Assembly: GCA_019749895.1 (NCBI GenBank)
Contig: JAIEPG010000005.1
Coordinates: forward strand, 73,371-137,370
Source: Candidatus Babeliales bacterium
Lineage (GTDB): Bacteria > Babelota > Babeliae > Babelales > RVW-14
Reading direction: 5' to 3'
Length of the DNA: 64,000 nt
The translations under genes were made by a program, and so were the position numbers. The notes beneath the pieces were generated by a model that saw nothing but the letters and a program-made list of their open reading frames with translations, made no database searches and was not told where the DNA came from. This document shows positions 14,151-57,564 of this stretch, in pieces; within the stretch, counting starts at the first letter, position 1, and every line of letters begins with the position of its first letter.

Positions 14151-14209
14151 GGTTGCACGGAAAAACATGATAGATTAAGCAAAATTCTTACCGCTGGGTT
14201 GTGGGCACT

Positions 14210-32088: not shown

Positions 32089-32174
32089 CTAAAACTCCCT
32101 CTTTGAATTTTTTAACGATTTGTAGTACTTTTTATACAAAGTAGGCCCATTAATACGCTTGAACAAGGAATGCT

Positions 32175-33416: not shown

Positions 33417-33422
33417 AAAAAT

Positions 33423-34657: not shown

Positions 34658-34686
34658 TTGGCAAGAAGAATTTATCTTCTTGCCAA
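34658..34686. other. Perfect 12-bp hairpin (ttggcaagaaga-attta-tcttcttgccaa) just upstream of a candidate promoter
   Basis: Read directly from the sequence. No T-run follows on either strand, so it is not a classical terminator. Confidence 0.6.
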
Positions 34687-34688
34687 CC

Positions 34689-34716
34689 TTGACGCACAGC
34701 CGCACCTTGCTACACT
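34689..34716 (+). promoter_or_regulatory. Candidate promoter TTGACG-N16-TACACT for the M16 peptidase gene
   Basis: The hexamers were read directly. It lies 67 nt upstream of the ATG at 34783. Confidence 0.35.
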
Positions 34717-37566: not shown

Positions 37567-38947
37567 AAACTTTCCCGTAACGTGCCACACCAACAACGTA
37601 GGCCCTGGCTCAACCTTTGTTGCCATTAACGGCAAAACTACCAACGGTAATACTTTTATTGAGCAAGCGCTTGAGCAAGGTGCCACCGCCCTAGTGGTTG
37701 AACATCCATTTAAAGCCTGCGAATTTTTAACTAAGCATCACAATACAACTATTACCATTTCTATGGTTCCCAACGCGCGCAAAGCGCTGGCAACGATGAG
37801 CAGTAATGCGCTTGGCAACCCTGCTTCTCAGCTAAAAATTATTGGCGTTACTGGCACCAAAGGTAAAACAACAACAACGTATCTGATTGAACACATGCTG
37901 CGCACCAGCGGCTACAAAACCGCCATGCTTTCCGGCGTTGTTAACAAAATTTTAGATCGCGAAGAGCCAAGCACACTGACCACACCAGAAAGCGATTACC
38001 TGCATATGTTTTTTGCCGAATGCGTAAAACAAGGTGTTGACTATGTGGTTATGGAAGTTTCTTCTCACGCGCTCAGCCTGTTCCGCACACACGGCATTAC
38101 GTTTGAAGCAGCAGCATTTACCAACTTAGCAATTGAGCACATGGATTTTCACCAAACGCTTGAAGATTATTTTGCAGCAAAAATGATGCTCTTTGAGCAG
38201 ATAAAACCAAACGGCACTATTGTTATTAACGCCGATAATGAGTGGGGCATAAAAGCCCTTGAACAACTCGCTGGTAAAAATCCTGTTACAAGCTCACTAC
38301 AAAACGTCACTATTGCGAACAACAACCTTGATGGGCTTGCAGTTACGCTTGATGGAATCACGCTGGCAACAACCATGCTTTTTGGCACGTTTAACGCACA
38401 AAATATTTGCCAAGCGTACACGCTGTGCAAACAGTTGGGCGTCAACACGCAAACCATGCAACGAGCACTAGCAAGCTTTCCTGGCGTACCAGGCAGACTG
38501 CAAGGACATAAACTTGCCAACGGCGCTTACGCGTTTGTTGATTATGCACATAACGGTTCGTCATTTGAAGCAGTGCTGAGCACGCTACGCCCACTCACCA
38601 AGCATTTGATTGTGGTGTTTGGCTGTGGCGGCAACCGCGACAAAACGCGCCGCACACTGCTGGGCCAACGCGCAGCTGAGTATGCCGACAGCATAATTTT
38701 GACTGACGATAACCCTCGCTTTGAAAAAAGCGAAGCAATTATTAACGATATTGTACAAGCAATTCCTGTTGAAAAACGTGATCGCGTTGTGTGTGAGCCA
38801 AACAGACACTTAGCACTGGCCCGTGCAGCCGCTCAAGCAACACCAGAAAGCATTATTGCTATTTTGGGCAAGGGGCATGAAACTTCATATATCGTTGAAG
38901 GAACAAATTATTCCTTCAACGATTTTAAAGAAATCCAGCAATTCTAA
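37553..38947 (+). CDS. murE: UDP-N-acetylmuramoyl-L-alanyl-D-glutamate--2,6-diaminopimelate ligase
   Basis: GVTGTKGKTTT P-loop, the DNPR motif (LTDDNPRFE), and a Mur ligase three-domain length. It overlaps the preceding gene by 14 nt. Confidence 0.85.
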   Translation: MLVPKNFPVTCHTNNVGPGSTFVAINGKTTNGNTFIEQALEQGATALVVEHPFKACEFLTKHHNTTITISMVPNARKALATMSSNALGNPASQLKIIGVTGTKGKTTTTYLIEHMLRTSGYKTAMLSGVVNKILDREEPSTLTTPESDYLHMFFAECVKQGVDYVVMEVSSHALSLFRTHGITFEAAAFTNLAIEHMDFHQTLEDYFAAKMMLFEQIKPNGTIVINADNEWGIKALEQLAGKNPVTSSLQNVTIANNNLDGLAVTLDGITLATTMLFGTFNAQNICQAYTLCKQLGVNTQTMQRALASFPGVPGRLQGHKLANGAYAFVDYAHNGSSFEAVLSTLRPLTKHLIVVFGCGGNRDKTRRTLLGQRAAEYADSIILTDDNPRFEKSEAIINDIVQAIPVEKRDRVVCEPNRHLALARAAAQATPESIIAILGKGHETSYIVEGTNYSFNDFKEIQQF

Positions 38948-38952
38948 AAATG

Positions 38953-40989
38953 CTAACTTGTTGAATCGTAAAAAAGCTGGCCAGCCAAGTTAACGGTAGC
39001 ACCGCTCAAAACGTAGGCATCCAAATCGAAACTTGAACCAAGAGATGAATTACCAAGCGTAAGACCATTGGTCAGTGCTTGACTAGCTGATTCTGTGGTA
39101 TAAGCAACATCAAAAACTAATATTTCATTTGGTGAAGATGCTACTCCTGCCAAAAGTTTTTTACCGTCAGCAGAAAAACGAAGATCTGTTACGTTCACAA
39201 GACCAACATTGTACGTGTAAACCGACGTCAGTGATGTACCATTAAATTCAAAAATTCTGATATTGTTGACACCTCCACCTTGAGCCCCTCCAACAGCAAC
39301 ATAACGACCATCTGGAGACCAATCTACCGCGTAGTAAAGGGTGGTATTAAACGAATTAGATGCACTAGCAATCAAATTTTGTGTAAAACCGTTAAAAGAA
39401 TACACCATTAATGCAGGATCTGAACCAGCCGAGCTATTATAGGTTGTTATAGCAAAAAATAACCCATCAGAACGCCAAGCAACCTGACTAGATATTGCAA
39501 ATGCAGCAGAAAAAGTTACGGAATGACTACTTTGCTGCGTAAGAGATGTCCCATCAAACAAGTAAGTCTTGCTTGTTGTTGTTGGCGAAAAGCTACCGTA
39601 ATAAAGAGCTAAATATCTACCATTTGGACTCCACATAAGGGCTCTTCCTGCACTAAAGTTCCCTGCTCCTGGGGCCACTGTTGCAATTGCTGTAAGACTA
39701 TAACCACTAAACGAATAAACCGTCAAAGAACCAGTATTCATACCAGCAAGATAGTTACCACAAGGACTCCACGCTACTATGAATTGTCCACCAACCGAAG
39801 CAATTGGAGTCAAGCTTGCACCATCAAACCTGAAAACAGTTATGCCCGTGGCCCCAATAACACCAACAGCAATAAACCGACCAGTTGGATCCCAGTCAAC
39901 TGAGTAAACACCGGTACCACCCAGAACATAAGAAGCAACTAATTCTAATCCAGTAGCAGTAACTTTCAAAACACGAAAATTTGCATTAAGATAAGAAATA
40001 GTTGCAACATAACGAGCATTTGGGCTAAAAACACATTCAGCAAAACTTGATCCACTCGTAAGCAAAGAACTTGTCTCTGTTAAACTCAAAAATTTCGTTG
40101 TAGGTTTTGTCTCGATATCAATTTTATTGTCTAACCACAAGCGACCCTTGGTCAACCGCATGCCGGTAAATGTTGTTTGCAATGTGGTTCCGGAACCTTT
40201 GAGATAGATCCCCGAAGATTTGTCGTTCAGTTGCAATAAATCTTTATCGGTGGTGCTTGGATAGTAGTACAACGTAGTGCCAGGGTCGAAAGTCAACAGT
40301 GATTTTGGCGCAACATAACTTTGCATAACTGATTGATAAATAAATTGTGAAGTTCCGGTAAAGCGCACGTCATTAAAACAGAACATGCGCCCCGTTCTAA
40401 AAGCAAAATCATCTGCCAACGCCAGCTCAACATTATCAAGTGTCACATGCCCCTTTTGGTCAAAACAACGAATGATGGGAATATTGGAGCTGTTGCGCGT
40501 TGTTTGAATAGTCATATTTTTGAGCGTCAACGAAACATCTGAAGCAAGCAACAATTGTGCGTGCGCACCCAGCGTTAACGTATGGCCATGACCATCAATA
40601 ATTGTGTTGTCAATAAATTCTACAATCGTATCAGTTGGCAGACTCAATGAACCCCCAAGATGTATTGTGTTGCCACGCCCGTAAATTTTACCACTGCTTG
40701 ACCAGGTCAATTTTGAATCAAGATACAAATCTCCACGCAGATCTAACGAGCCTGTGGTACGCAAATCTATTGAACCAGAAACGGTATAAAACGTGTCTAG
40801 CGCTGCCGACTGGCCGGCTAAAATAGTAAAACCGTTATTTAACCGCACATAACCTTTTGCCGTGTTAAAGTTACGAAATACATAATGCTTGTCTTGATAC
40901 ACAATGCTTGCAGTACCATTCAAACTTGTTGCTTGCGCGAGCTCTGGACACAACGCAAGTAACACTAATAATTTTACAACTTGCTTCAT
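38953..40989 (-). CDS. Secreted modular protein, array paralog 1 of 5 (signal peptide, conserved N-module, 7-bladed propeller, conserved C-module)
   Basis: MKQVVKLLVLLALCPELAQA|TSLNGT. The N-module is shared with the other four copies. There are seven WSPxGxY-type blades. The C-terminus is ...ALTNGLTLGNSSLGSSFDLDAYVLSGATVNLAGQLFYDSTS. Confidence 0.85.
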   Translation of the reverse strand: MKQVVKLLVLLALCPELAQATSLNGTASIVYQDKHYVFRNFNTAKGYVRLNNGFTILAGQSAALDTFYTVSGSIDLRTTGSLDLRGDLYLDSKLTWSSSGKIYGRGNTIHLGGSLSLPTDTIVEFIDNTIIDGHGHTLTLGAHAQLLLASDVSLTLKNMTIQTTRNSSNIPIIRCFDQKGHVTLDNVELALADDFAFRTGRMFCFNDVRFTGTSQFIYQSVMQSYVAPKSLLTFDPGTTLYYYPSTTDKDLLQLNDKSSGIYLKGSGTTLQTTFTGMRLTKGRLWLDNKIDIETKPTTKFLSLTETSSLLTSGSSFAECVFSPNARYVATISYLNANFRVLKVTATGLELVASYVLGGTGVYSVDWDPTGRFIAVGVIGATGITVFRFDGASLTPIASVGGQFIVAWSPCGNYLAGMNTGSLTVYSFSGYSLTAIATVAPGAGNFSAGRALMWSPNGRYLALYYGSFSPTTTSKTYLFDGTSLTQQSSHSVTFSAAFAISSQVAWRSDGLFFAITTYNSSAGSDPALMVYSFNGFTQNLIASASNSFNTTLYYAVDWSPDGRYVAVGGAQGGGVNNIRIFEFNGTSLTSVYTYNVGLVNVTDLRFSADGKKLLAGVASSPNEILVFDVAYTTESASQALTNGLTLGNSSLGSSFDLDAYVLSGATVNLAGQLFYDSTS

Positions 40990-41041
40990 TACTACTCCCT
41001 TCTTTTACTTCTCACTCTTTTTTATAAATTTTTTTTATTTC

Positions 41042-43132
41042 CTAGCTTGTTGAATCGTAAAACAACTGGCCCGCCAAGTTAACGGTGGCACCGCTCAAAA
41101 CGTAGGCATCCAAATCGAATGAAGAGCCGGAAGCTGAGTTACCCAACGTAAGCCCGTTAGTAAGAGCTTGTGTTGTCGTGTCAAAGCGATAAGACACTGA
41201 ATAAACTTCAATTTGTGCATGGCCACCGGCAGGACCTTGACCACAAAGCGCTAGATATTTGCCATCTTTTGACCAACTTGTGTCTGCATGTCCATTGGAA
41301 TTACTACCATAATTGGAACTCGTTACCAGCGTTAAAGAAGAACCATTAAACTGAAAAATTTGAAACTCATTACTATTAGTCGGTGCTCTACCGCTCAGAG
41401 AGATGTATCTGCCGGTTGAATCCCACTGCACACTGTTAGGTCCAATTTGTAATCCATAATCTTTACTATCAACAAGCGTGCACGTTGTTCCATTAAAACT
41501 ATAAACTTGCAGTTCATTGCCATTAGTTGGAGAATTGCCCCCGACTGCCAAAAAATTACCATCCGGACTAAATTTCACTGCTAGAACAGAACTTGACCCA
41601 TACGTAACACTGGTAACTAATGTTAATGATGATCCATTGAATGAATAAACTTTAAATGTGCCATCACCTACACCAACAGCAACAAGGGCACTATTAATTG
41701 GATGCCATGAGAAACTAAACGGTGGACTCGATGGTCCAGCTATATTAAGACCGGTAACAAACGTAAGACTTGCAGCGAGAGGAGTCCCACTAAAACGATA
41801 CACTTGCAATCCATCACCAGTCGGCACCGGTGTTGGATTATAGGTACCAACAATAATATATTGCTGATCAAAAGACCATGCTAACCCAAACGCATTACCA
41901 ATATCAACCACCGAGCTTAATGAAACAGCAGCAAGTAACGTCAAACTTGTCCCATTAAAACTATAAACCTTAACGTTATTAGGATAACCACCAACTACCG
42001 CAAGATACTGACCGTCGATGCTCCATCGCGTGCAAAAAGCTTTGTTTTCAGTACCTCCAAAATTAGCGGTTGCTACCGAAGTAAGAGCTGCCCCGTCAAA
42101 GCGATAAACCTGTACCGAAGTAGCTCCGCCCCCTTCTCCAACTACCGCCACAAAGCGACCATTCGGAGAAAAATCGATTGAATAGGCACCAGTTGCCCCG
42201 TAACTTGCTGTGTCCACTTGGGTAATACTCGTTAATGTTGTTGCCGCGCGGGTACTCACCGTAACTTTATTGTCAAACCACAACCGACCTTTGCTCAAAC
42301 GCATACCGGTATGCGTTGTTTGGAGCGTTGTTGCAGCACCTTTAAAATAAACTCCTGCTGACTTGTCTTGCAGCTGTAATAAACTTTTTGCTGTTGTGCT
42401 TGGATAATAATACAATGTAGTACCAGGATCGAAGGTCAAAAGTGACTGTGAAGCAACATAGCTTTGCATCACCGATTGATATATAAAACACGAAGTGCCA
42501 GTCACAATAACATCGTTATTAAAGAACATGCGACCATTACGAAATGGAAAGTCATCTGCCAATGCCAACTCAACATCGTCCAACGTCACATGACCTTTTT
42601 GATCAAAACAGCGAATGATAGGAATGTTTGAACTATTGCGCGTTGTTTGAATGGTCATATTTTTGAGCGTCAACGAAACGTCTGAAGCAAGCAACAACTG
42701 CGCATGCGCCCCAAGCGTTAACGTGTGCCCATCACCATCAACAATGGTATCATCAATAAATTGTAAAACCGTGTCCGTTGGCAAACTCAATGAACCCCCA
42801 AGATGTATTGTATTGCCACGTCCATAAATTTTGCCGCTGCTTGACCACGTCACATGTGCATCTAAAAATAGATCGCTGCGCAAATCAAGCGAACCGGTGG
42901 TGCGCAAATCAATAGCACCAGAAACTGTTACAAAGGTATCTAAACCTGCCGACTGGCCAGCCAAAATGGTAAAGCCGTTGTTTAAACGTACATAGCCAGT
43001 TGCCGTATTAAAATTACGAAAAACATAATGCTTGTCTTGATACACAATGCTTGCGGTACCATTCAAACTTGTTGCACGCGCCAGCACTGGGCAGAACGCA
43101 AGCACCAATAATAATTTTAGAACGCGCTTCAT
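41042..43132 (-). CDS. Secreted modular protein, array paralog 2 of 5
   Basis: Same N- and C-modules. The propeller sequence is unrelated in detail to the other copies but again has seven blades (FSPNGRF, WSIDGQY, WSFDQQY, WHPINSA, FSPDGNF, WDSTGRY, WSKDGKY). Confidence 0.85.
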   Translation of the reverse strand: MKRVLKLLLVLAFCPVLARATSLNGTASIVYQDKHYVFRNFNTATGYVRLNNGFTILAGQSAGLDTFVTVSGAIDLRTTGSLDLRSDLFLDAHVTWSSSGKIYGRGNTIHLGGSLSLPTDTVLQFIDDTIVDGDGHTLTLGAHAQLLLASDVSLTLKNMTIQTTRNSSNIPIIRCFDQKGHVTLDDVELALADDFPFRNGRMFFNNDVIVTGTSCFIYQSVMQSYVASQSLLTFDPGTTLYYYPSTTAKSLLQLQDKSAGVYFKGAATTLQTTHTGMRLSKGRLWFDNKVTVSTRAATTLTSITQVDTASYGATGAYSIDFSPNGRFVAVVGEGGGATSVQVYRFDGAALTSVATANFGGTENKAFCTRWSIDGQYLAVVGGYPNNVKVYSFNGTSLTLLAAVSLSSVVDIGNAFGLAWSFDQQYIIVGTYNPTPVPTGDGLQVYRFSGTPLAASLTFVTGLNIAGPSSPPFSFSWHPINSALVAVGVGDGTFKVYSFNGSSLTLVTSVTYGSSSVLAVKFSPDGNFLAVGGNSPTNGNELQVYSFNGTTCTLVDSKDYGLQIGPNSVQWDSTGRYISLSGRAPTNSNEFQIFQFNGSSLTLVTSSNYGSNSNGHADTSWSKDGKYLALCGQGPAGGHAQIEVYSVSYRFDTTTQALTNGLTLGNSASGSSFDLDAYVLSGATVNLAGQLFYDSTS

Positions 43133-43187
43133 TACTACTCCCTTTTTCTGCTTTCTACTTCTCTTTTTTTATTCTCTAAATTTTTTT

Positions 43188-45248
43188 CTAACTTGTTGAG
43201 TCGTACATCAGCTGTCCTGCCAAATTAATGGTGGCATCACTCAGAACGTAGGTATCCAAATCAAACGAAGAACCAGCAGTTGAATTGCCAAGCACAAGAC
43301 CGTTTGTCAATGCTTGTGTAGTTGTGTCAAAACGATACGAAACGGTCCAGACTTCTATCTCGTCGTGGCCACCGTCAGGGCCCTCACCGCCAATAGCTAT
43401 ATACTTTCCATCAGAGCTCCATGCAACACCGTTGATTGACGTTCCAAAATTATAACTGGCAAGTTCAGTTAAAGTTCCTGGCCGCGTAAACTGATAAAGT
43501 TTAAGCTCACTACCATTGGTCGGAGTTGTTCCTCCACCAACCAAATATTGCCCATCAGGGCTCCAACGGGCCTCAAGAAAACTATCATTATTGCCGCTAT
43601 AAATAATGCTTGCAACGAGAGAAAAGGAACCCCCAGGATTAACAGAAAGTATGTTCAATCGTGAATCACCACCACCAATTTGATTGATCGTTTCAGAAAC
43701 ATACAAACCATCTTGAGTAAATTCTGCAGAACGACCAGATTGTCCAGCGTTAGTCGCTTGAATCAATGTTAATATTGATCCGTTAAAACTATAAGTACGC
43801 GTTTCAGTACTTGGCCCAGCACTCCCGCTAGAACAAAAAAAACGCGCACTTGGATGCCACGAAAGACCTCTAACATTACCTTGCCCAATTCCATTCCCAT
43901 CAATAAATGTTAATTTTTGACCATCAAATCTATAGATTTGCAACTGTTCAATTGTTGCGTCATCAGTAGATCCAAACAAAACATATTCTCCTGAAGGGCT
44001 CCACGCAATTCCTTTAACATTATCCGTTGCAGTAAGATCAGTTGCAGCAATGGTAGTAAGCGTTGTACCATTAAAACTGTAAATTCTCACATCGTTAGTT
44101 GCATCACCAACTGCACCTACAAATCTTCCACTTGGATGCCAGCGCACACGCCACACTTCAGCACCACCGCCAGTCCAATTATCACCGGTAACGTACGTCA
44201 GCGTTGAGCCGTTGAAACGGTAAACTTGAAATTCCATACCATTTGTTGGTCCAAAACCACCCACCGCTAAATACCTACCATCGGGGCTCCAATCTACCGA
44301 TTGTACCCGCGTACCATAACTTGCCGTGGTGAGTTGCACAAGGCCATTGGCAACCGTATTTGCCCGTGTAGTCAATGTTACTTTGTTATCCAACCAGAAG
44401 CGGCCCTTGCTCAAACGCATCCCGGTATGCGTTGTTTGCAACGTTGTTGCAGAACCGTTCAAATAAATACCTGCCGATTTGTCTTGCAGCTGAATCAAGT
44501 CTTTATCTGTTGAACTTGGGTAGTAATAAAGCGTAGTACCAGGATCGAACGTTAACAGCGATTGTGGCATCACATAACTTTGCATCCACGATTGATAAAT
44601 AAAACATGAAGTACCGGTCATTACAACATCATTACCAAAAAACATACGACCAGTTCGAAACGGAAAGTCATCTGCCAAAGCCAACTCAACATTGTCCAAC
44701 GTCACATGCCCTGTTTGGTCAAAGCAGCGAATAATAGGGATGTGTGCACTGTTGCGCGTTGTTTGAATGGTCATATTTTTGAGCGTCAACGAAACATCTG
44801 AAGCAAGCAACAATTGTGCATGCGCACCCAGCGTTAAGGTGTTGCCATGACCGTCAATAACGGTATCGTCAATAAATTGTACAATCGTATCAGTTGGCAA
44901 GCTCAAAGAACCGCCAAGGTGTATTGCATTGCCACGCCCATAAATTTTGCCGCTACTGGACCACGTTGCATGAGCGTCTAAAAATAAATCACCACGCAAA
45001 TCGAGCGAACCGGTGGTGCGCAAATCAATGGCACCCGAAACGGTTACAAAGGTATCTAAACCGGCAGACTGACCCGCCAAAATAGTAAAACCGTTATTTA
45101 AACGCACATAGCCTTTTGCCGTATTAAAATTACGAAAGACATAATGTTTGTCTTGGTACACAATGCTTGCCGTGCCGTTTAAACTTGTTGCCTGAATGAA
45201 TGTTGGGCACAGCACTAGCACCGCTAATAATTTTATAAGTCGCTTCAT
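43188..45248 (-). CDS. Secreted modular protein, array paralog 3 of 5
   Basis: Same architecture. Blades 1-2 and 6-7 are nearly shared with paralogs 4 and 5. Confidence 0.85.
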   Translation of the reverse strand: MKRLIKLLAVLVLCPTFIQATSLNGTASIVYQDKHYVFRNFNTAKGYVRLNNGFTILAGQSAGLDTFVTVSGAIDLRTTGSLDLRGDLFLDAHATWSSSGKIYGRGNAIHLGGSLSLPTDTIVQFIDDTVIDGHGNTLTLGAHAQLLLASDVSLTLKNMTIQTTRNSAHIPIIRCFDQTGHVTLDNVELALADDFPFRTGRMFFGNDVVMTGTSCFIYQSWMQSYVMPQSLLTFDPGTTLYYYPSSTDKDLIQLQDKSAGIYLNGSATTLQTTHTGMRLSKGRFWLDNKVTLTTRANTVANGLVQLTTASYGTRVQSVDWSPDGRYLAVGGFGPTNGMEFQVYRFNGSTLTYVTGDNWTGGGAEVWRVRWHPSGRFVGAVGDATNDVRIYSFNGTTLTTIAATDLTATDNVKGIAWSPSGEYVLFGSTDDATIEQLQIYRFDGQKLTFIDGNGIGQGNVRGLSWHPSARFFCSSGSAGPSTETRTYSFNGSILTLIQATNAGQSGRSAEFTQDGLYVSETINQIGGGDSRLNILSVNPGGSFSLVASIIYSGNNDSFLEARWSPDGQYLVGGGTTPTNGSELKLYQFTRPGTLTELASYNFGTSINGVAWSSDGKYIAIGGEGPDGGHDEIEVWTVSYRFDTTTQALTNGLVLGNSTAGSSFDLDTYVLSDATINLAGQLMYDSTS

Positions 45249-45304
45249 TACTACTCCCTTTTTCTACCTTCTACTTTCTCTTTTTTTATTCTCTAAATTT
45301 TTTT

Positions 45305-47368
45305 CTAACTTGTTGAGTCGTAAAACAACTGCCCAGCCAAGTTGACGGTTGCATCACTCAGCACATACGTATCTAAATCAAACGAAGAGCCAGCAGTTGA
45401 ACTGCCAAGCACAAGACCGTTTGTCAATGCTTGTGTAGTTGTGTCAAAACGATACGAAATGGTCCATACTTCAATTTCGTCATGCCCTCCGTCAGGCCCT
45501 TCACCGCCAATAGCTACATATTTTCCATCAGAGCTCCATGCAACACCATTAATTGCGGTTCCATAGTTGTAACTCGCAACTTCTGTTAATGTTGCTGGCC
45601 GCGTAAACTGATAAAGTTTAAGCTCGCTGCCATTACTTGGCGAGTTTCCACCACCAACCAAATACTGTCCATCAGGACTCCAACGAACTTCAAGAAAATT
45701 ATCATTGCCACCGCTGTAAACAATATGCTCCACAACACTAAATGAGGCTCCAGTAAATGAACACATAGTCAACCTTGAATCTCCACCACCTATTGTGTTC
45801 ATTGCTATCGCAAAATAAAGCCCATCCTGACTAAATTCAGCAGAACGACCTGATTGCCCGGCATTTGAAGCTTGAACAACAGAAATAGACGTTCCATTAA
45901 AACTATACACACGCGTTTCAATACTCAGCGCTCCCGCATTGCCCGCAACACAAAAAAACTTGCCACTGGGATGCCACGAAAGACCGCGAGCTGAAGCTGA
46001 AGTCACATTCATATCCGCACTATCAACAAATGTTAACGAGTTACCATCAAATCGATAAACTCGAATTTCGTCAGACGCATTCTCGTTATCAATACCAAAC
46101 AAAATAAATTCTCCTGATGGGCTCCAAGCAAGACCACGAACATCGCCAGTTGTAATATTTATTGCATCAAGCGTTATTAACGTTGAGCCATCAAAGCTAT
46201 AAATTCTCACGTCATTGGTTGCATCACCAACAGCAGCCACAAAACGACCATTTGGGTGCCAACGAACACGCCACACTTCAGCACCCCCACCAGTCCAATT
46301 ATCACCAGTAACGTACGTCAGCGTTGAACCGTTAAAGCGATAGACCTGAAATTCGAAAGTATTGGTTGGCCCAGTACCACCAACGGCCAAATATCTACCA
46401 TCTGGACTCCAATCTACCGAACGCACACGCGTGCCATAACTTGCCGTAGTGAGTTGCACAAATCCATTAGCAACCGTATTTGCCCGTGTAGTCAATGTTA
46501 CTTTGTTATCCAACCACAATCTACCTTTACTCAAACGCATGCCAGTATGCGTTGTTTGAAGCGTTGTTGCAGCACCTTTAAAATAAACTCCTGCTGACTT
46601 GTCTTGCAGCTGAACCAAATCTTTGTCCGTCGAGCTTGGGTAGTAATACAGCGTAGTGCCTGGATCGAACGTTAAAAGCGAATGTGGCACAACATAACTT
46701 TGCATAACCGATTGATAAACAAAACATGAAGTGCCGGTCACCACCACATCGTTTTCAAAAAACATACGGCCAGTTCGAAACGGAAAGTCATCTGCCAAAG
46801 CCAACTCAACATTGTCCAACGTTACATGCCCTGTTTGGTCAAAGCAGCGAATAATAGGAATATGTACGCTGTTGCGCGTTGTTTTGAGCGTCATATTTTT
46901 GAGCGTCAACGAAACATCTGAAGCAAGCAACAATTGTGCATGCGCACCAAGCGTTAACGTATGGCCATGGCCGTCAATAACGGTATCATCAATAAATTGT
47001 ACAATCGTATCGGTTGGCAAACTCAAAGAGCCACTAAGATGTATGGCATTGCCACGGCCATAAATTTTGCCGCTACTGGACCACGTTACATGAGCGTCTA
47101 AAAATAAATCACCACGCAAATCGAGCGAACCAGTGGTGCGCAAATCTATAGCACCAGAAACGGTTACAAACGTGTCCAGCCCTGCAGACTGGCCAGCCAA
47201 AATAGTAAAACCATTGTTCAAACGCACATAGCCTTTTGCCGTGTCAAAATTACGAAAAACATAATGCTTGTCTTGGTACACAATGCTTGCCGTACCATTC
47301 AAACTTGTTGCACCTGCGAGCGTTGGGCACAGCGCAAGCACCGCTAATAATTTTACAAAACGGTTCAT
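45305..47368 (-). CDS. Secreted modular protein, array paralog 4 of 5
   Basis: Same architecture. By my count the N-module is aa 1-295 (nt about 46484-47368), the propeller is aa about 305-638, and the C-module is aa 639-687. Confidence 0.85.
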   Translation of the reverse strand: MNRFVKLLAVLALCPTLAGATSLNGTASIVYQDKHYVFRNFDTAKGYVRLNNGFTILAGQSAGLDTFVTVSGAIDLRTTGSLDLRGDLFLDAHVTWSSSGKIYGRGNAIHLSGSLSLPTDTIVQFIDDTVIDGHGHTLTLGAHAQLLLASDVSLTLKNMTLKTTRNSVHIPIIRCFDQTGHVTLDNVELALADDFPFRTGRMFFENDVVVTGTSCFVYQSVMQSYVVPHSLLTFDPGTTLYYYPSSTDKDLVQLQDKSAGVYFKGAATTLQTTHTGMRLSKGRLWLDNKVTLTTRANTVANGFVQLTTASYGTRVRSVDWSPDGRYLAVGGTGPTNTFEFQVYRFNGSTLTYVTGDNWTGGGAEVWRVRWHPNGRFVAAVGDATNDVRIYSFDGSTLITLDAINITTGDVRGLAWSPSGEFILFGIDNENASDEIRVYRFDGNSLTFVDSADMNVTSASARGLSWHPSGKFFCVAGNAGALSIETRVYSFNGTSISVVQASNAGQSGRSAEFSQDGLYFAIAMNTIGGGDSRLTMCSFTGASFSVVEHIVYSGGNDNFLEVRWSPDGQYLVGGGNSPSNGSELKLYQFTRPATLTEVASYNYGTAINGVAWSSDGKYVAIGGEGPDGGHDEIEVWTISYRFDTTTQALTNGLVLGSSTAGSSFDLDTYVLSDATVNLAGQLFYDSTS

Positions 47369-47423
47369 TACTACTCCTTTTTTCTACTTTCTACTTTCTC
47401 TTTTTTTATTTTCTAAATTTTTT

Positions 47424-49505
47424 TTAACTTGTTGAGTCGTAAAACAACTGCCCAGCCAAGTTGAGGGTTGCACCACTCAAAACGTAGGTATCCAAATCAA
47501 ACGAAGCGCCAGCAGTTGAGTTGCCAAGCGTAAGACCGTTGGTGAGTGCTTGGGTTGATGTGTCGAAGCGATACGAGACCGTCCACACTTCAAGCTCATC
47601 GTGCCCACCACCAGCACCGTTACCACCAATCGCTATATACTTGCCATCACGGCTCCACGCAACACCGTTGATTGCAGTCCCATAGTTGTAGCTTGCAACT
47701 TGGGCAATGGTGCTTGGCCGAACAAACTGGTAAAGCTTCAGCTCATTACCATCATCGGGACCCGTCCCTCCACCAACCAAATAGTTGCCATCGGGACTCC
47801 ATCGTATTTCAAAAGTCGATTGGTCTGCAGAAGAGTTATACGTCGTTGTGTCAACATCCTGAAAACTCCCACCAGGGTTAATTTCTTGTATTTTAAAGCG
47901 ACTCGTCGTATGCCCCGCGTTACTTAAGGCAGTAGCAAAAAACAATCCATCCGGAGTAAATTCTAACGAACGACCATCTGCACCAAGCCCACTATCTTGA
48001 ATAAGCGTAAGCGTACTGCCATCAAAAAGATACGTCCTCGTTTCTTGTAAATTATTTGCCGTACCACACAAGCCAAGGTACATACCATCAGGATGCCACC
48101 CCAAACCAGTCCCTCGTGCAAACGAAGCACCTAAATCAATACCATAAATAAAAGTCAGGCTTGCACCATCAAAATGGTAGAGTTGTAGCTCTGTCGATGG
48201 CAAATCATCATCAATCCCACATACCAGATAATGACCCGTTGGATGCCAAGCAAGCCCCTTCACTTCACCGGCTGACGTGAGATCAGTCACATCAAGCGTT
48301 ATTAAGGTTGTTCCATCAAAACTGTAAACCCTGACATCGTTGGTTGCATCACCAACAGCTGCCACAAAGCGACCGCTTGGGTGCCAACGCACGCGCCACA
48401 CTTCTGCACCACCACCAGTCCAATTATCACCGGTAACATACGTCAGCGTCGAGCCATTGAAACGGTAAATTTGAAATTCCATACCATTTGTTGGGCCTGT
48501 ACCACCAACGGCCAAATACCTACCATCTGGGCTCCAATCTACCGAACGCACACGCGTGCCATAACTTGCCGTAGTGAGTTGCACAAATCCATTCGCAACG
48601 GTGCTTGCTCGTGTACTGACCGTTACTTTGTTATCCAACCAGAAGCGACCCTTACTCAAGCGCATGCCGGTATGCGTTGTTTGCAACGTCGTTGAACTGC
48701 CGTTCAAATAAATTCCTGCCGATTTGTCTTGCTGCTGAATCAAACTTTTTGTTGTTGAACTTGGGTAGTAATACAGCGTAGTGCCTGGATCGAAGGTCAA
48801 AAGCGAATGTGGCAGAACATAACTTTGCATGACCGATTGATATACAAAACATGAAGTGCCGGTCACCACCACATCGTTTTCAAAAAACATACGACCAGTT
48901 CGAAACGGAAAGTCATCTGCCAAAGCCAACTCAACATTGTCCAACGTCACATGACCTTTTTGATCAAAGCAGCGAATAATAGGAATATGAGAACTGTTGC
49001 GCGTTGTTTTGAGCGTCATATTTTTAAGCGTTAATGAAACGTCTGAAGCAAGCAAGAGCTGCGCATGCGCCCCAAGCGTTAACGTGTGCCCATGGCCGTT
49101 AATAACGGTATCGTCAATAAATTGTACAATCGTATCGGTTGGCAAACTCAAAGAGCCACTAAGATGTATGGCATTGCCACGGCCATAAATTTTGCCGCTA
49201 CTGGACCACGTTGCATGAGCGTCTAAAAATAAATCACCACGCAAATCCAACGAACCAGTAGTACGCAAATCGATAGCGCCAGAAACGGTTACAAACGTAT
49301 CAAGCCCTGCAGACTGGCCAGCCAAAATAGTAAAGCCATTGTTCAAACGTACAAATCCTTTTGCCGTATCAAAATTACGAAAAACGTAATGCTTGTCTTG
49401 ATAAACAGGAGTCACCGTACCGTTTAAACTTGTTGCTTGAACAAGCCAGGAACAGCTTAATAAAACCAACAAAAAAAAGATAAAAAGCAGTACTTTCTTA
49501 CTCAT
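47424..49505 (-). CDS. Secreted modular protein, array paralog 5 of 5 (first in transcription order)
   Basis: MSKKVLLFIFFLLVLLSCSWLVQA|TSLNGT and the same architecture. An AAAGGAGAGAG RBS precedes the ATG. Confidence 0.85.
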   Translation of the reverse strand: MSKKVLLFIFFLLVLLSCSWLVQATSLNGTVTPVYQDKHYVFRNFDTAKGFVRLNNGFTILAGQSAGLDTFVTVSGAIDLRTTGSLDLRGDLFLDAHATWSSSGKIYGRGNAIHLSGSLSLPTDTIVQFIDDTVINGHGHTLTLGAHAQLLLASDVSLTLKNMTLKTTRNSSHIPIIRCFDQKGHVTLDNVELALADDFPFRTGRMFFENDVVVTGTSCFVYQSVMQSYVLPHSLLTFDPGTTLYYYPSSTTKSLIQQQDKSAGIYLNGSSTTLQTTHTGMRLSKGRFWLDNKVTVSTRASTVANGFVQLTTASYGTRVRSVDWSPDGRYLAVGGTGPTNGMEFQIYRFNGSTLTYVTGDNWTGGGAEVWRVRWHPSGRFVAAVGDATNDVRVYSFDGTTLITLDVTDLTSAGEVKGLAWHPTGHYLVCGIDDDLPSTELQLYHFDGASLTFIYGIDLGASFARGTGLGWHPDGMYLGLCGTANNLQETRTYLFDGSTLTLIQDSGLGADGRSLEFTPDGLFFATALSNAGHTTSRFKIQEINPGGSFQDVDTTTYNSSADQSTFEIRWSPDGNYLVGGGTGPDDGNELKLYQFVRPSTIAQVASYNYGTAINGVAWSRDGKYIAIGGNGAGGGHDELEVWTVSYRFDTSTQALTNGLTLGNSTAGASFDLDTYVLSGATLNLAGQLFYDSTS

Positions 49506-49563: not shown

Positions 49564-51216
49564 TCAAACAATCAGAAATTTTTGTAGCTGATAGTCCCAC
49601 GAAACCAAAACGGGATTATCTTTTTTCAACAATGCTTCAATAACAATCGAAATAGCCGTTGGTTCTCCTCTACTATTTTTTTCAAGAACAGTTAAAGAGC
49701 TCACTGAATTTTGTGTTGAAATATTTTTCGGAAAATAAAGATGTTCTGGATCGCAAGAACGCAGCTCAACCATCCCATTTTTTAGCTCAACCGTCATATG
49801 ATGCGGCTTTATCTCATAAAACGGCTCTGATTTAAAAGCAAAGGTATTAATGGTATAAAACACGGACATGCGCTTGGCACTACCACCCAACAGCCACAAG
49901 GCTTGGGCATTGCTACTACCAAACCAGTGCATGGGCAAGCCAACAAACCAAACCGCTCGATCATGAATTTTTTGATCAGCAACCAAGCCTTTAAAGGCTG
50001 TGATGATCGTGTTCAAAACACGCTCTTTGGTGCGCTGTCGGTAAAAAAAACTGGTAGCATTTACTGCTAAAAGAATAAATAAAAAAGGGTACAAGCCCCA
50101 CGCGGGTACAGAAAAACGAGATGTGTAATAAGAAACTGCATACAAAATAATACCAAACAAAAACGGCAAACCAACGTACAAATAGCGCGGTTGATAGTAC
50201 AAAAGCAAAGCCGGCCAAGTAAAAAGAATTATACTGCCAACAAGAAAGCACAGCTCTTTGTACTGCCTGCGCGCAAAAAACGGCCACACTAAACAACTGA
50301 GTAGTAACACAACCAAACTACCCTTGAGCAAACGATTGCCACTGGGAATAAGACCAACGTACAGATAATCGCAGACATAGCTGATCCAATCTCCTAAACG
50401 CTCTTTTTGACGTGCAACAAACACATCAAACGTTTGCTTAAAATTCCCACCCAAAACCTTTATCTGCAACGGAAACAGCCACAAGCGCACTACCAAATAA
50501 AAAAAAGCACCTGCCCAATAACCAAGCGACACACGTAGTGCCCGGCCAGCATACTGCCACAGAGCCCCACCCTGCGTAAACGAACAGTAAAACATGGTCG
50601 CCGCAAAGGCCCAGACGGGAAAAACAATTAATGTTTCTTTTGCAAAAATGCTCAGTGTCATAATGCTGCACGAGAGCAAATACCACAGACATTTTTTGCT
50701 GTCTAAATAGCGTTTTAAACAATACGCAGCGCCCAACAAATACAACACATCAACAATATAAATTTGACAGGTAAAAACGCCAATCCAATGCTCAAGGCTG
50801 GGGTGCAGCGCAAAAAACATGGCACCAAAAAAGGCCAGTGGTAAGCCAAAAAAAGTAAAAAATATGTTAAATAGCACAACCGAAATTAATGCGTGAAGCG
50901 TAATAACACAGATCAGCAAAGCGTACGGATTGATACCAAAAAACCAGCTTTCTAAACCAAAGAGCACAAATTGCATGGGCCGGTACAAAACCGAAGCAAA
51001 CGTTAACGGTATTGCCGGATAATTTGAAGGATTAAAAGCATGACCAATATCGTGTGGCGCAAAAAATGAAAAGAGATCAGAAAGTTTGTGTAGTTGAGCA
51101 TGCAACAAAAAACCACAATCGTCATTAATAAACCCCCAATTAAAAAATGGTAAGGCAAGAATTGCCAAAATGCTCACAAAAATAAACACCGAAAAAAAGA
51201 GTCTTTTTTTCTCCAT
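49564..51216 (-). CDS. GT-C-fold-like polytopic membrane protein (TMTC/PMT-like), paralog family member, immediately upstream of the array
   Basis: WGFINDDCGFLLHA follows TM1. LYRPMQFVLFGLE and LHALISVVLFNIFF are shared with the proteins at 60517 and 62178. The start at 51216 lies 8 nt after GAAAGG. Confidence 0.65.
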   Translation of the reverse strand: MEKKRLFFSVFIFVSILAILALPFFNWGFINDDCGFLLHAQLHKLSDLFSFFAPHDIGHAFNPSNYPAIPLTFASVLYRPMQFVLFGLESWFFGINPYALLICVITLHALISVVLFNIFFTFFGLPLAFFGAMFFALHPSLEHWIGVFTCQIYIVDVLYLLGAAYCLKRYLDSKKCLWYLLSCSIMTLSIFAKETLIVFPVWAFAATMFYCSFTQGGALWQYAGRALRVSLGYWAGAFFYLVVRLWLFPLQIKVLGGNFKQTFDVFVARQKERLGDWISYVCDYLYVGLIPSGNRLLKGSLVVLLLSCLVWPFFARRQYKELCFLVGSIILFTWPALLLYYQPRYLYVGLPFLFGIILYAVSYYTSRFSVPAWGLYPFLFILLAVNATSFFYRQRTKERVLNTIITAFKGLVADQKIHDRAVWFVGLPMHWFGSSNAQALWLLGGSAKRMSVFYTINTFAFKSEPFYEIKPHHMTVELKNGMVELRSCDPEHLYFPKNISTQNSVSSLTVLEKNSRGEPTAISIVIEALLKKDNPVLVSWDYQLQKFLIV

Positions 51217-51296
51217 ACCCATCACCTTTCTCTCGATTGGATCTTTACTCCTTTGGTTAATGCTATAGTATTTAGGCAGAGAAAGAAAGGAGTAGC

Positions 51297-53360
51297 GTGC
51301 TGAAAAATTTTCATAAATTTAAGATCCAATACCTCTTAATAATTGGAATTTTTACTCTTAAAATTATTGCGCTCATTCTCTTTTCTTCAGACTACATGGA
51401 GCAACTTTTTGTCCCATTTATTGAGCACTTTGTACAAAGCTTTGGTAACCCCTGGCAATATTTTTTTGACTGTCAGTCGGCCGTAGAGTTTCCTTACCAC
51501 CCGCTCATGCTTTATCTTTTATCGCTGTGCTACCTACCACTCAAACTTTTGGGTATTAACAGGCAAGCACTTGCAACCATTGCGCTCAAACTACCAACGC
51601 TGTGTGCTGACGTAAGCATTACCTACCTGCTACTTAAAACGTTTCCAACGCGAACTCAAGAAGTAGCTCTTTTTTATTACGCATCGCCCATAATTTTTTA
51701 CGCAGCCTACCTGCATTCACAACTCGACCTGATACCAACTGCTATCCTGTTTTTGAGTATTTACTTGCTCAAACAAGACAAAGTTTTTTTTGCATCGCTC
51801 ATACTGGGCTGCGCCCTGAGCACGAAGCTACACGTTATTGCAGCGGCACCAATCATGGCTATTTATGTACTCAAAAATTATTCGTTTAAAAAAATGATTA
51901 CGTTTAGCGCTACTGTGCTGACCGTTTATTGTTTTTTTGTAGCTCCATTTATTTTGAGCACCGGCTACTATCATTTGGTGCTCACCCACCCCAAACAAAT
52001 GCTGCTGTTTGATGTCTTTGCACAATTTGGGACCCTCAAGCTCTACCTGCCGGTGTGCGCCCTGCTTACGCTGTATGGCCGATTTTTTACGTACGAAAAA
52101 ATTAACAACGATCTCATGGACGCATTTTTAGGCATCGTCTTTTCGTTTTTTGTGCTACTCATTATACCCGCGCCAGCGTGGTATATGTGGATGCTGCCAT
52201 TTTTAAGCACGGTTTTAATTAAACAATCAGACAACAACCACAACATGCTCTGGACCTATGCAGGCTTGAACAGCTTGTATTTCATATTTTTTATCTTTTT
52301 TTATCAATCCACCTGTAACGATTTATTGTTTTTAGGCACCCCCGTCAACTTTAAAATATCGCATCAAACGTTATGCAACATCACCTTTACGCTGCTTGAG
52401 GCAACGCTGCTCTTGCTGATTTATTGCATGTACAAATTTGGCGTGCGCAGCAATGCCATTTATAAAAAAACACACAGCCTGATTATTGGGATTGGTGGCG
52501 ACAGCGGTGCGGGCAAAAGTACGTTTATGCACGACTTACACGTTATTTTGGGCGCCAAAGCAACCATGCTTGAAGGCGATGGCGACCACCGCTGGGAGCG
52601 AAACGACCAGCACTGGCAAGAATTTACACACTTGGACCCAAAAGCCAACTACCTACACCGGCAAGCCGAAAACCTTTTAAGTTTAAAAATGGGTCAGGCA
52701 ATTAAACGTACTGATTACAACCACACCAGCGGCACCTTTGACCCAGCACGCTTAATTAAACCAACTGATTTTATTTGCTTGAGCGGCCTGCATCCACTCT
52801 ACCTGCCCAAAATGCGTAAACTAATCGACGTCAAAATTTATTTAGACCCGGCCCCAGATATTCGCGCGCATTGGAAAATTGTACGTGATATGCACAAGCG
52901 CGGATACTCAAAAGAAAAAGTAATCGAACAACTCAACAAACGCGCCATTGACGGCCAAAAATATATTGAACCGCAAAAAAATTTTAGCGATTTAATTGTT
53001 CATTATTTCACCGACCAACCATTTGAAATTGGCAACCCACACGAACATCCACACATCAAACTCAAAATCACGCTCGATTCAAGCGTACGCCTTGATCAAT
53101 TAATTCAAGAACTTACCAAAGCAAACATCAACTTTGTGTGGGATTACGCAGCAGATTTAAGATCGCAATACCTAATATTATCACAACCAATTGCGCACAC
53201 AGTGTTACCAACAATCGCTCAAAACATTTTAGTAAATATTGAAGAGTTAACCGTACAAAACAACTTGTGGGCGCAGGGTTATCGCGGTTTTTTGCAATTG
53301 ATAACTCTGCTCATTATGAGCGAAAAAATGAGAGAAAAGGATATTTATGAACGAGCTTAA
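51297..53360 (+). CDS. Fusion protein: N-terminal polytopic membrane domain (about 380 aa) plus a C-terminal PRK/uridine-kinase-family P-loop kinase domain
   Basis: The GTG start is preceded by GAAAGGAG. Hydrophobic segments run through about aa 380. Then come IIGIGGDSGAGKSTF (P-loop at about nt 52488-52523), ...GDGDHRWERND..., ...LSGLHPLY..., ...DVKIYLDP....IRAHWKIVRDM.KRGYS, typical of the phosphoribulokinase/uridine kinase family. Confidence 0.7.
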   Translation: MLKNFHKFKIQYLLIIGIFTLKIIALILFSSDYMEQLFVPFIEHFVQSFGNPWQYFFDCQSAVEFPYHPLMLYLLSLCYLPLKLLGINRQALATIALKLPTLCADVSITYLLLKTFPTRTQEVALFYYASPIIFYAAYLHSQLDLIPTAILFLSIYLLKQDKVFFASLILGCALSTKLHVIAAAPIMAIYVLKNYSFKKMITFSATVLTVYCFFVAPFILSTGYYHLVLTHPKQMLLFDVFAQFGTLKLYLPVCALLTLYGRFFTYEKINNDLMDAFLGIVFSFFVLLIIPAPAWYMWMLPFLSTVLIKQSDNNHNMLWTYAGLNSLYFIFFIFFYQSTCNDLLFLGTPVNFKISHQTLCNITFTLLEATLLLLIYCMYKFGVRSNAIYKKTHSLIIGIGGDSGAGKSTFMHDLHVILGAKATMLEGDGDHRWERNDQHWQEFTHLDPKANYLHRQAENLLSLKMGQAIKRTDYNHTSGTFDPARLIKPTDFICLSGLHPLYLPKMRKLIDVKIYLDPAPDIRAHWKIVRDMHKRGYSKEKVIEQLNKRAIDGQKYIEPQKNFSDLIVHYFTDQPFEIGNPHEHPHIKLKITLDSSVRLDQLIQELTKANINFVWDYAADLRSQYLILSQPIAHTVLPTIAQNILVNIEELTVQNNLWAQGYRGFLQLITLLIMSEKMREKDIYERA

Positions 53361-56208: not shown

Positions 56209-56679
56209 ATGACCATAAAAAGTATAATTTTTCTCATGATTACTCTCACACTCACAACAAAGACTATGCCAGCGGCACTACGGACTGATATTAATGCCGT
56301 TGATAGTAGCGGCTGGACACGATTACACCTTGCTGCCAGCAATGGCAATGAGAGAGAAGTAGAATTACTCATTGCAGCTGGCGCATATGTTGATGCTCAA
56401 AACTATGCCGGCTGTACACCTCTTCTTTTTGCTGCCATGCATGGCTATGACAAAATTGTAGCATTACTTCTTACCAAAGCAGATCTCAGCACGTATGTCG
56501 GCTGGACACCACTGCATACTGCTGCTCTCAATGGCCACCTTGCCTGCGTACAATTGCTTGTTGGCGCTGGCGCAGACATTCATGCTAAAGACAGACATGA
56601 TCGAACACCACTTGATTGCGCTCGTGAAAATGGTCATACCAAAATTGTAGAATTACTTGAAGCTGCAAGAGTTTCTTGA
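56209..56679 (+). CDS. Ankyrin-repeat protein with signal peptide
   Basis: MTIKSIIFLMITLTLTTKTMPAA, then WTRLHLAASNGNEREVELLIAAGAYVDAQN and similar repeats. Confidence 0.85.
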   Translation: MTIKSIIFLMITLTLTTKTMPAALRTDINAVDSSGWTRLHLAASNGNEREVELLIAAGAYVDAQNYAGCTPLLFAAMHGYDKIVALLLTKADLSTYVGWTPLHTAALNGHLACVQLLVGAGADIHAKDRHDRTPLDCARENGHTKIVELLEAARVS

Positions 56680-56742: not shown

Positions 56743-57564
56743 ATGACAAATATACCCACCACACTCACGCTTCATGAAGCTGCCAAGATTGGCGATATCA
56801 AAGCTCTCCAAGAACTTATTGCCACAGGCGCTGATGTTAACAGTCCTGATGAAGAAGACTGGACACCCCTGCATTTTGCTGCCCTGGAAGGTCATGCCGC
56901 ATGCGTAGCATTGCTCATTGCTGCCGGCGCGCAGGTGAATGCCCGCAATGAAAATAGCGAAACACCACTTAATTTTGCTTGCCAAGAAGGCCATGCAGAA
57001 ATTGTAACATTACTTATTGCTGCCAATGCGGATGTTAATATCACTGACAACACCAGCTGGATGCCACTTCATGATGCTGTTTACAATGGCTACCCTGCAT
57101 GCGTACAATTACTTATTGCTGCTGGCGCACATGTTAACACAGCAGACAACCAACAAAGCCAAACCCTACTTCATGGAGCTGCACAATTCGGCCATGCCGG
57201 AGTAGTAGAATTACTTCTTGGCGCTGGCGCAGATGTTGATGCTCGTAACGGTGACCATGCCACACCTCTTCATCTGGCCGCTGACCAAGGTCACACAACT
57301 TGCGTGGAATTACTTATTGGCGCTGGAGCAACTCTTGATGCTTGTGATAATGATGGCGCCACGCCACTTCATTTCGCAGCCACCAATGGCCACATCAGCG
57401 TTGTAACAGTACTTGTTGACGCACTCTCCAACGCAGGGAAAAGTGTTAATACACGCACTAAAACAGGCAATACACCACTTGCTTTGGCAATTCAAAACCG
57501 CAATTCAAAAACCGTAAAATTACTGCTCACATTGTCTGAAACTACATCAGAACTCATACACTGA
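56743..57564 (+). CDS. Ankyrin-repeat protein (273 aa)
   Basis: MTNIPTTLTLHEAAKIGDIKALQELIATGADVN, followed by about seven repeats. Confidence 0.85.
   Translation: MTNIPTTLTLHEAAKIGDIKALQELIATGADVNSPDEEDWTPLHFAALEGHAACVALLIAAGAQVNARNENSETPLNFACQEGHAEIVTLLIAANADVNITDNTSWMPLHDAVYNGYPACVQLLIAAGAHVNTADNQQSQTLLHGAAQFGHAGVVELLLGAGADVDARNGDHATPLHLAADQGHTTCVELLIGAGATLDACDNDGATPLHFAATNGHISVVTVLVDALSNAGKSVNTRTKTGNTPLALAIQNRNSKTVKLLLTLSETTSELIH

Follow-up and report, generated by a model that had tools for sequence, protein, structure and literature searches.

Conserved ends and divergent propeller cores in a tandem gene array of a Candidatus Babeliales bacterium: probable concerted evolution of the ends around old, stable cores

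How do the members of a tandem gene array come to be nearly identical at both ends and strongly divergent in the middle? The question is raised by five consecutive genes, designated P1 to P5, in 64,000 nucleotides of an uncultured, amoeba-associated Candidatus Babeliales bacterium (GenBank assembly GCA_019749895.1, contig JAIEPG010000005.1, positions 73,371 to 137,370 of the forward strand), a stretch referred to here as the window. Each gene encodes a WD40-type beta-propeller between a conserved N-terminal module and a short conserved C-terminal module. The initial annotation, made from the sequence alone, attributed the pattern to gene conversion or concerted evolution of the flanks, combined with diversifying selection or cassette exchange in the predicted ligand-binding face of the propeller. 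We consider it probable (roughly 0.75) that the ends evolve in concert through recombination in addition to purifying selection, and that the propeller cores are old, stable and vertically inherited. Present-day diversifying selection and cassette replacement are not supported. The array is not a hypervariable system; it is a case of a known evolutionary pattern, segmental concerted evolution, in a new and uncharacterised family of Babeliales.

The array covers about 10.5 kb of the minus strand and consists of five intact head-to-tail open reading frames (ORFs) of 678-696 aa, each complete with an ATG, a spacer bearing a ribosome-binding site (RBS), and a signal peptide. Common to all five proteins are a Sec-type signal peptide, an N-module of ~275 aa, the propeller, and a C-module of 47 aa. 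P5 (47424-49505, 693 aa) is the first gene and stands apart from the other copies in a divergent signal peptide and an upstream region not shared with them. Its N-module lies at 48600-49427, blades 1-2 at 48279-48599, blades 3-5 at 47826-48278, blades 6-7 at 47568-47825, and the C-module at 47427-47567. P4 (45305-47368, 687 aa) is divided into signal peptide (47303-47368), N-module (46475-47302), blades 1-2 (46154-46474), blades 3-5 (45704-46153), blades 6-7 (45449-45703) and C-module (45308-45448). In P3 (43188-45248, 686 aa) the N-module is at 44355-45182, blades 1-2 at 44034-44354, blades 3-5 at 43587-44033, blades 6-7 at 43332-43586, and the C-module at 43191-43331. P2 (41042-43132, 696 aa) has N- and C-modules as in the other copies and a propeller that is different throughout, and P1 (38953-40989, 678 aa), the last gene, likewise joins the common modules to a distinct propeller. 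The spacers between copies are 52-56 nt long, A-rich and conserved between copies, and they end in a GGGAG ribosome-binding site.

Identity along the genes is distinctly mosaic. In sliding windows over the alignment of P3, P4 and P5, columns 1-390, which hold the N-module and blades 1-2, are 83-100% identical in amino acids and 76-99% (mostly 82-92%) in nucleotides. Amino acid identity is 25-71% in columns 391-585 and 55-93% in columns 586-717, which hold blades 6-7 and the C-module. Taken by segment, the three proteins are 85-100% identical through blade 2, 30-65% in blades 3-5, and 73-93% in blades 6-7 plus C-module. The near-identity of the first part, the renewed similarity of the last and the non-uniform divergence are therefore as the initial annotation had described them, and the motif strings that it quoted are present. 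From blade 1 to blade 7, the proportion of columns varying among the three copies is 9, 32, 72, 68, 67, 35 and 20%; within blades 3-5 the top-loop columns vary most (85-88%, versus 66% in strands and 53-58% in bottom loops). The divergent middle, originally placed at aa 395-555 or nt 45704-46186 of P4, needs only a slight refinement to aa 406-555 or nt 45704-46153. P1 and P2 do carry different propellers between the same ends: compared with the other copies they are 82-96% identical in the N-module and 68-84% in the C-module, and only 23-46% in the propeller.

Are the ends alike because the copies exchange sequence, or purely because they are constrained? Under constraint only, the five genes would be ancient duplicates that never exchanged sequence, and stronger purifying selection on the ends would account for everything. 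Purifying selection is certainly strong, as dN/dS is 0.03-0.15 in the N- and C-modules and blades 1-2, and the conserved parts are 82-92% identical in nucleotides, well below the 93-100% in amino acids. Protein constraint, however, cannot lower divergence at 4-fold degenerate sites, which were counted in codons sharing the first two bases and are insensitive to protein divergence. At these sites the ends differ by 0.19-0.40 and blades 3-5 by 0.54-0.74. For P4-P5, the divergence is 0.22 in the N-module (26/118 sites), 0.29 in blades 1-2, 0.72 in blades 3-5 (21/29), 0.64 in blades 6-7, and 0.19 in the C-module. The corresponding values are 0.40, 0.42, 0.74, 0.64 and 0.29 for P3-P5, and 0.30, 0.45, 0.54, 0.33 and 0.24 for P3-P4. 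By Fisher's test, the N-module differs from blades 3-5 in all three pairs (p = 6e-7 for P4-P5, 0.001 for P3-P5, 0.01 for P3-P4); in P4-P5, blades 1-2 (2e-4) and the C-module (4e-4) also differ from blades 3-5, and blades 6-7 do not differ significantly. The silent divergence of blades 6-7 of P5 (0.64) is in fact close to that of its blades 3-5 (0.72), as constraint alone would have it.

Comparison with two related genomes separates the history of the ends from that of the propellers. Genome C (JAIERW010000001.1, with JAIERW010000022.1) has a syntenic array of four copies, C1-C4, between the same flanking genes; its flanks are 83-89% identical to the window in DNA, and the copies were compared as DNA. 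Genome B, the closest relative, has an array of five copies known as proteins MBY0352882-886 and compared at the protein level only. In a neighbor-joining tree of the N-module, copies of the window and genome C group by genome (C1-C4 together with 96% bootstrap support, P3-P5 with 98%). In every propeller segment, P2 is instead joined at 100% bootstrap to its ortholog C1. The P2 and C1 propellers are 91-95% identical in amino acids, with dS (Nei-Gojobori, NG86, as for all dS and dN/dS values here) of 0.48-0.61 and dN/dS of 0.05-0.16, whereas their N- and C-modules are not orthologous (dS 1.05-1.7). At 4-fold sites P2 and C1 differ by 0.24-0.35 in the propeller versus 0.56 in the ends (p = 0.005), and flanking single-copy genes of the window and genome C differ by 0.32-0.43. 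Since the flanking genes resemble the propeller values, the propeller, unlike the ends, follows the divergence of the species. The value of 0.56 also indicates that the N-module is able to saturate and is not silent-site-constrained. Within genome C, C3 and C4 are nearly identical in DNA over ~800 nt, with an N-module dS of 0.02-0.06 and an identical run of 595 nt, alongside saturated propellers.

Recombination tests, carried out with our own implementations rather than the published programs, place the signal in the similar segments. The PHI test is significant in the N-module (p = 0.013 with window copies only, p <= 0.001 with genome C) and not significant in blades 3-5 (p = 0.46 and 0.098, respectively). 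A GENECONV-like permutation test of the N-module gives p ~0.0005 for P2-P4 and P3-P5, and 0.009 for P4-P5, which becomes 0.0005 once blades 1-2 are added. A two-breakpoint scan of silent third positions delimits a high-divergence block at aa 332-649, 367-641 and 312-634 in the three pairs (permutation p 0.005-0.04). As this block approximates the whole propeller, it follows that blades 6-7, and partly blade 2, are conserved by constraint and not by conversion. Lower silent divergence in the ends and a recombination signal confined to the similar segments are what concerted evolution predicts, and grouping of paralogs within genomes is seen in the N-module between the window and genome C. Constraint as the sole cause is already contradicted for the N- and C-modules, and for the array as a whole we regard it as very unlikely.

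The attribution of the flanks to gene conversion or concerted evolution consequently stands for the N-module, part of blades 1-2 and the C-module, where silent sites, trees and the PHI and GENECONV-like tests agree. It does not stand for blades 6-7, which in P5 are old and merely constrained, and much of the amino acid identity is explained by purifying selection. Homogenisation in the window is moreover old and patchy, not recent: among P3-P5, dS is 0.35-0.59 in the N-module and 0.64-0.82 in blades 1-2. The longest identical run between any two window copies is 99 nt (46989-47087 in P4, 49114-49212 in P5, both on the minus strand), where the local proportion of silent differences (pS) between P4 and P5 is 0.04; judged from sequence, this stretch is probably the youngest conversion tract that the window contains.

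Where would the copies exchange sequence? The head-to-tail layout creates homology blocks of ~1.1-1.3 kb that alternate with divergent propeller cores. The block between P5 and P4 (46475-47567, minus strand) comprises the P5 C-module, a 55-nt spacer with the RBS, and the P4 signal peptide and N-module. Equivalent blocks on the same strand lie at 44355-45448 (P4 to P3), 42239-43331 (P3 to P2) and 40096-41185 (P2 to P1). Nucleotide identity is unbroken, at 68-98%, over C-module, spacer and next N-module, and because homology is continuous across the junction, the natural exchange unit spans two adjacent genes. We propose these blocks as substrates for conversion and unequal crossing-over. The data indicate that they evolve in concert: besides being under strong purifying selection, the copies recombine homologously, and conversion tracts reach variably into blades 1-2, ending where sequence identity collapses. 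Conversion likely halts at the core because nucleotide identity there, ~45-65%, is too low for homologous recombination, and loss of the core differences is presumably selected against. A scan of the array for promoters and terminators yielded a number of sites not above that in shuffled sequence.

Core number and order differ among the three related arrays, as would be expected from unequal crossing-over in the blocks. Numbering core types after the window, the order is 5-4-3-2-1 in the window, X-3-5-4-Y in genome B and 2-Z-Y-V in genome C, the letters X, Y, Z and V denoting core types that the window lacks. Order, number and the pairing of ends with cores therefore vary among relatives, for which the initial annotation had suggested a survey of copy number and shuffling, and the cores themselves are stable. 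Positional orthology of the N-modules between the window and genome B was considered and was rejected after the gene order of genome B had been resolved.

Are the cores themselves being diversified? Blades 3-5 of P3 differ from those of the genome B ortholog MBY0352883, which falls in the same 90% cluster, at 4/149 positions; those of P4 differ from MBY0352885 at 14/150, and those of P5 from MBY0352884 at 38/151. Orthologs thus differ in blades 3-5 by 2.7-25% (mean 12.4%) and paralogs by 52-53%, whereas the N-module shows the same 5-12% difference whether orthologs, paralogs or non-orthologs are compared. Of the quartet sites in blades 3-5, 52 favour orthology and none either alternative (52:0:0); in the second half of the N-module the count is 0:3:7, against orthology. 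MBY0352885 itself combines a core of P4 type with an N-module in which one stretch matches P5 exactly. Dividing paralog distance by ortholog distance gives ~0.8-1.0 for the N- and C-modules, 1.3 for blades 1-2, 1.7 for blades 6-7, and no less than 5.7 for blades 3-5.

These data bear on the idea that blades 3-5 form a hypervariable ligand- or antigen-facing cassette under ongoing diversifying selection or programmed variation, comparable to msp2/p44, vlsE or pilE/pilS. Divergence is indeed concentrated in blades 3-5 with its peak in the top-face loops, dN/dS between paralogs is 3-5 times that of the flanks (0.31-0.39 versus 0.06-0.15), and core order and number differ among related arrays. The dN/dS values are nevertheless far below 1, namely 0.31-0.39 between paralogs, where dS is saturated, and 0.114 for P2-C1, the sole ortholog pair with DNA. 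Each of the cores of P3-P5 has been kept between genomes, the recombination signal is lacking inside blades 3-5, and all copies are intact. A tblastn search of the 64-kb window found no array fragments, truncated or silent cassettes and no copy of the variable region outside the array, so that neither truncated donors (in the window) nor rapid turnover of a variable segment, the marks of silent-cassette antigenic variation, are seen. We therefore regard this explanation as quite unlikely, and diversifying selection on blades 3-5, as first suggested, is not supported. Cassette exchange fares somewhat better: ends and cores differ in history and cores are rearranged among arrays, but no exchange is detected inside blades 3-5. 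An early adaptive burst may have followed duplication, at a depth where dS is saturated. As for a diversity-generating retroelement, which would pair a nearby reverse transcriptase with a template repeat matching its target, the window contains no second copy of the variable region; no search aimed at a reverse transcriptase was made.

The cores of P3-P5 are 41-58% identical to each other and 23-35% to any other propeller. Being mutually closest, they diverged in situ, and an origin of blades 3-5 by transfer from a different propeller lineage was rejected on this ground. A separate observation is that, over the same split between the window and genome B, the P5 core (38/151) and the P3 core (4/149) differ about ten-fold in rate, even though they are sister cores.

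The reading that we favour, concerted ends around old cores, recognises three tiers within one gene. The first, made up of the N-module (variably into blades 1-2), the spacer and the C-module, is shaped by constraint and recurrent exchange. The second, blades (1-)2 and 6-7 of P3-P5, is old at silent sites and conserved in protein. The third, blades 3-5, is old, paralog-specific and stable in each lineage, with the greatest differences in the WD40 top-face loops. On this reading the propeller cores are old paralog lineages inherited vertically under purifying selection; within the P3-P5 subfamily, blades 1, 2, 6 and 7 are alike by constraint, and blades 3-5 are specific to each paralog.

Conserved ends with a variable propeller are the general design of arrays in this family. 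Metagenome contigs with arrays were located by an N-module alignment scan, and 13 arrays were compared, 11 on such contigs and two in genome C. Adjacent N-modules are mostly 68-100% identical and propellers 17-62%; in a few divergent pairs N-module identity is 42-54%, and several arrays have lowered N-module silent divergence. The closest proteins all come from metagenome-assembled genomes of Candidatus Babeliales (Dependentiae/TM6), and a scan of a genome collection returned genome C and unrelated WD40 proteins and nothing else. As far as databases show, the family is restricted to Babeliales. It is large: no fewer than 11 members are present in the genome of the closest relative, many metagenome contigs carry tandem arrays, and additional members at other loci include a ~900-aa class extended at the N-terminus. 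The P1 propeller is nearest to that of a 917-aa member at another genome B locus (54% over the aligned length), and its N-module is of the local type. Genome C has a second array at 7225-19516 of JAIERW010000022.1, with three long members (905-919 aa), in which ~230 additional N-terminal aa precede the N-module, and after them three shorter or fragmented copies (495, 233 and 593 aa) that may be decaying.

Structure models give the parts of the protein a physical form. Of the Pfam models, solely those for WD40-type propellers recognise the proteins, PF00400 scoring 36.7-62.3 bits in all five paralogs (cut-off 27). The AlphaFold2 model of full-length P4, built with 63 homologs (pLDDT 89.4, pTM 0.87), shows an N-module composed entirely of short beta strands, a propeller of seven blades with four strands each, and a small module at the C-terminus. 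The propeller contains 28 strands in these blades (aa 312-356, 365-403, 409-451, 459-501, 506-552, 558-600 and 606-640) plus an N-terminal closing strand. Foldseek matches the propeller best to the seven-bladed WD40 proteins WDR61, TLE1, Sec12 and WDR5 (E ~1e-13, target TM-score up to 0.84), and sequence scores and fold together assign it to the seven-bladed WD40 propellers. The N-module modelled alone reaches a pLDDT of 93.3, and its top Foldseek matches are all beta-helix proteins, although weak ones (TibA, polygalacturonases, RbmB and Ag43; E >= 0.023, TM-score 0.27-0.37). PF20585, a pectate-lyase-like right-handed beta-helix adhesin family, matches it at E = 0.029 and 15 bits, below the cut-off of 24.3. 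A sequence-profile search of the PDB gave no match to the N-module, and searches of Pfam, NCBIfam and PADLOC gave no usable curated family for either module, the C-module matching nothing. An autotransporter domain was likewise not matched in Pfam or NCBIfam, and just 47 aa follow the propeller. The models suggest a conserved, all-beta, solenoid-like N-module; by ring topology, blades 3-5 would lie opposite the N/C junction.

Several points weigh against the reading of concerted ends and old cores, or limit it. The N-modules of the window and genome B are unsorted and not clustered by genome, so that the within-genome grouping seen against genome C fails here; over short times, N-module variants look reshuffled rather than fully homogenised. 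Homogenisation in the window is old (dS 0.35-0.8), and under such purifying selection part of the amino acid similarity needs no conversion. The genome B orthologs enter as proteins only. For the N- and C-modules, neither a curated family nor a convincing solved structure was matched, and it is the topology of the ring, not inspected coordinates, that puts blades 3-5 across from the N/C junction. Finally, all three genomes are metagenome assemblies, probably from one study, and the between-genome mosaics could partly be artefacts.

Could the whole pattern have arisen during assembly? Chimeric or collapsed co-assembly of near-identical repeats might produce a mosaic, or apparent recombination between genomes. 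The record of genome C indicates a co-assembly binned with MetaBAT, and C3 and C4 share the 595-nt identical run. In addition, ~2.6 kb of the window (32090-34700, covering hisS at 32175-33416, a 219-aa ORF at 33423-34082, and intergenic sequence beyond) is 100% identical in DNA to JAIERW010000001.1 within flanks of 76-93%, with 0/171 differences at 4-fold sites of hisS. Such a segment points either to recombination between two lineages in the very recent past or to a chimera created in co-assembly or binning. Repeat collapse would, however, need nearly identical true copies, and the window copies are five intact ORFs that differ throughout and share no identical run longer than 99 nt. The mosaic at silent sites within the contig is independent of other assemblies, and arrays of the same build are present on 11 independent metagenome contigs. 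An artefact as the source of the pattern is therefore highly improbable, and concerted evolution of the ends around old cores remains the preferred reading.

What might such an array be for? Dependentiae (Babeliales) are widespread, almost uncultured, obligate associates of protists, as parasites or symbionts. The odds are roughly even that the array proteins are exported binders at the interface between bacterium and host, a suggestion prompted by the signal peptides, the solenoid-plus-propeller architecture, the large size of the family in reduced genomes, and the design of a constant frame with a variable core. The constant modules may serve export, anchoring or scaffolding, and the top-face loops of blades 3-5 may set ligand specificity. 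We also considered a more far-reaching idea, that the array is a recombination-driven repertoire in which the blocks are built-in crossover sites that duplicate, delete and reorder specificity cores. If so, cores would be re-paired with export or anchor modules, tuning which protist surface or intracellular targets can be bound, and the N-module would be a beta-solenoid fold without a solved relative; we regard this as unlikely. Genome papers on Dependentiae mention WD40 or beta-propeller proteins only generically, as putative host-interaction domains (PMC4776705, PMC4378268). The family is a candidate set of host-range or host-interaction determinants of Dependentiae, and as such a lead of moderate interest. 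More generally, three histories can be separated in one gene, namely that of the ends (conversion), that of old blades held by constraint, and that of old blades specific to each paralog, and the locus cautions that conserved ends with a divergent middle are by themselves no sign of diversifying selection.

The array is bounded upstream by a gene for a 553-aa multi-pass membrane protein (49564-51225, minus strand) and downstream by murE (37553-38947, plus strand), which is convergent with the array; both are syntenic in genome C. The upstream protein belongs to a set of ~553-aa multi-pass membrane paralogs on the minus strand (49564-51225, 60517-62181 and 62178-63842) with a weak PMT_2 (glycosyltransferase-like) match and the common motifs WGF.DD.GF..HA and LYRPMQF; the adjacent pair overlaps by 4 nt and is 37% identical. 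A functional tie between the array and its PMT_2-like neighbour was rejected, as the pairing occurs in the window and genome C and at no other compared locus. Elsewhere in the window, three ankyrin-repeat proteins (31432-32088, 56209-56679 and 56743-57564) represent a type of protein typical of protist-associated intracellular bacteria. A 687-aa protein (51297-53360) has a phosphoribulokinase/uridine-kinase domain (PF00485) at aa 396-571 in its C-terminal half, and its N-terminal ~390 aa match nothing in Pfam or NCBIfam. ARAGORN finds no tRNA or tmRNA in the 64 kb, and no Rfam family reaches its gathering threshold there.

Among known systems, chlamydial Pmps and the autotransporters TibA and Ag43 are multi-copy, partly tandem, exported beta-solenoid proteins of intracellular or host-associated bacteria and include the weak best structural matches of the N-module. 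The array proteins differ in having a WD40 propeller after the solenoid and, with a C-module of 47 aa, no C-terminal beta-barrel translocator, and the match is not significant (E >= 0.02, TM-score ~0.3). Anaplasma msp2/p44 also has conserved ends around a central variable region; it uses one expression site and many truncated silent donors and varies within an infection. The array, in contrast, consists of five complete genes, no silent fragments were found in the 64-kb window, and its central regions are conserved between genomes. Closer in pattern are babA, babB and babC of Helicobacter pylori, adhesins of the Hop family whose 5' and 3' ends are nearly identical, whose binding specificity resides in a divergent middle, and which undergo conversion between copies via the conserved ends. 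The bab genes occupy dispersed loci and encode outer-membrane beta-barrel adhesins at the host interface, and their middle is replaced within strains and during infection. The array shares with them conserved ends, a divergent middle and conversion between copies; it differs in being head-to-tail, in its solenoid-plus-propeller proteins, and in cores that are stable between genomes.

The tandem lipoprotein-like (lpl) cluster of Staphylococcus aureus offers a parallel in mechanism. As described by Tsuru & Kobayashi (2008, PMC2568036), variable segments are reshuffled and copy number is altered through recombination at a conserved segment, and the evolutionary unit there runs from the 3' part of a gene across the spacer into the 5' part of its neighbour. 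Both systems are tandem paralog clusters encoding putative host-interaction proteins, with a unit that spans the gene junction like the block of C-module, spacer and N-module described here. Fold and phylum differ, and the geometry is inverted: lpl genes have a conserved centre and variable ends, whereas the array combines a conserved junction with a variable centre.

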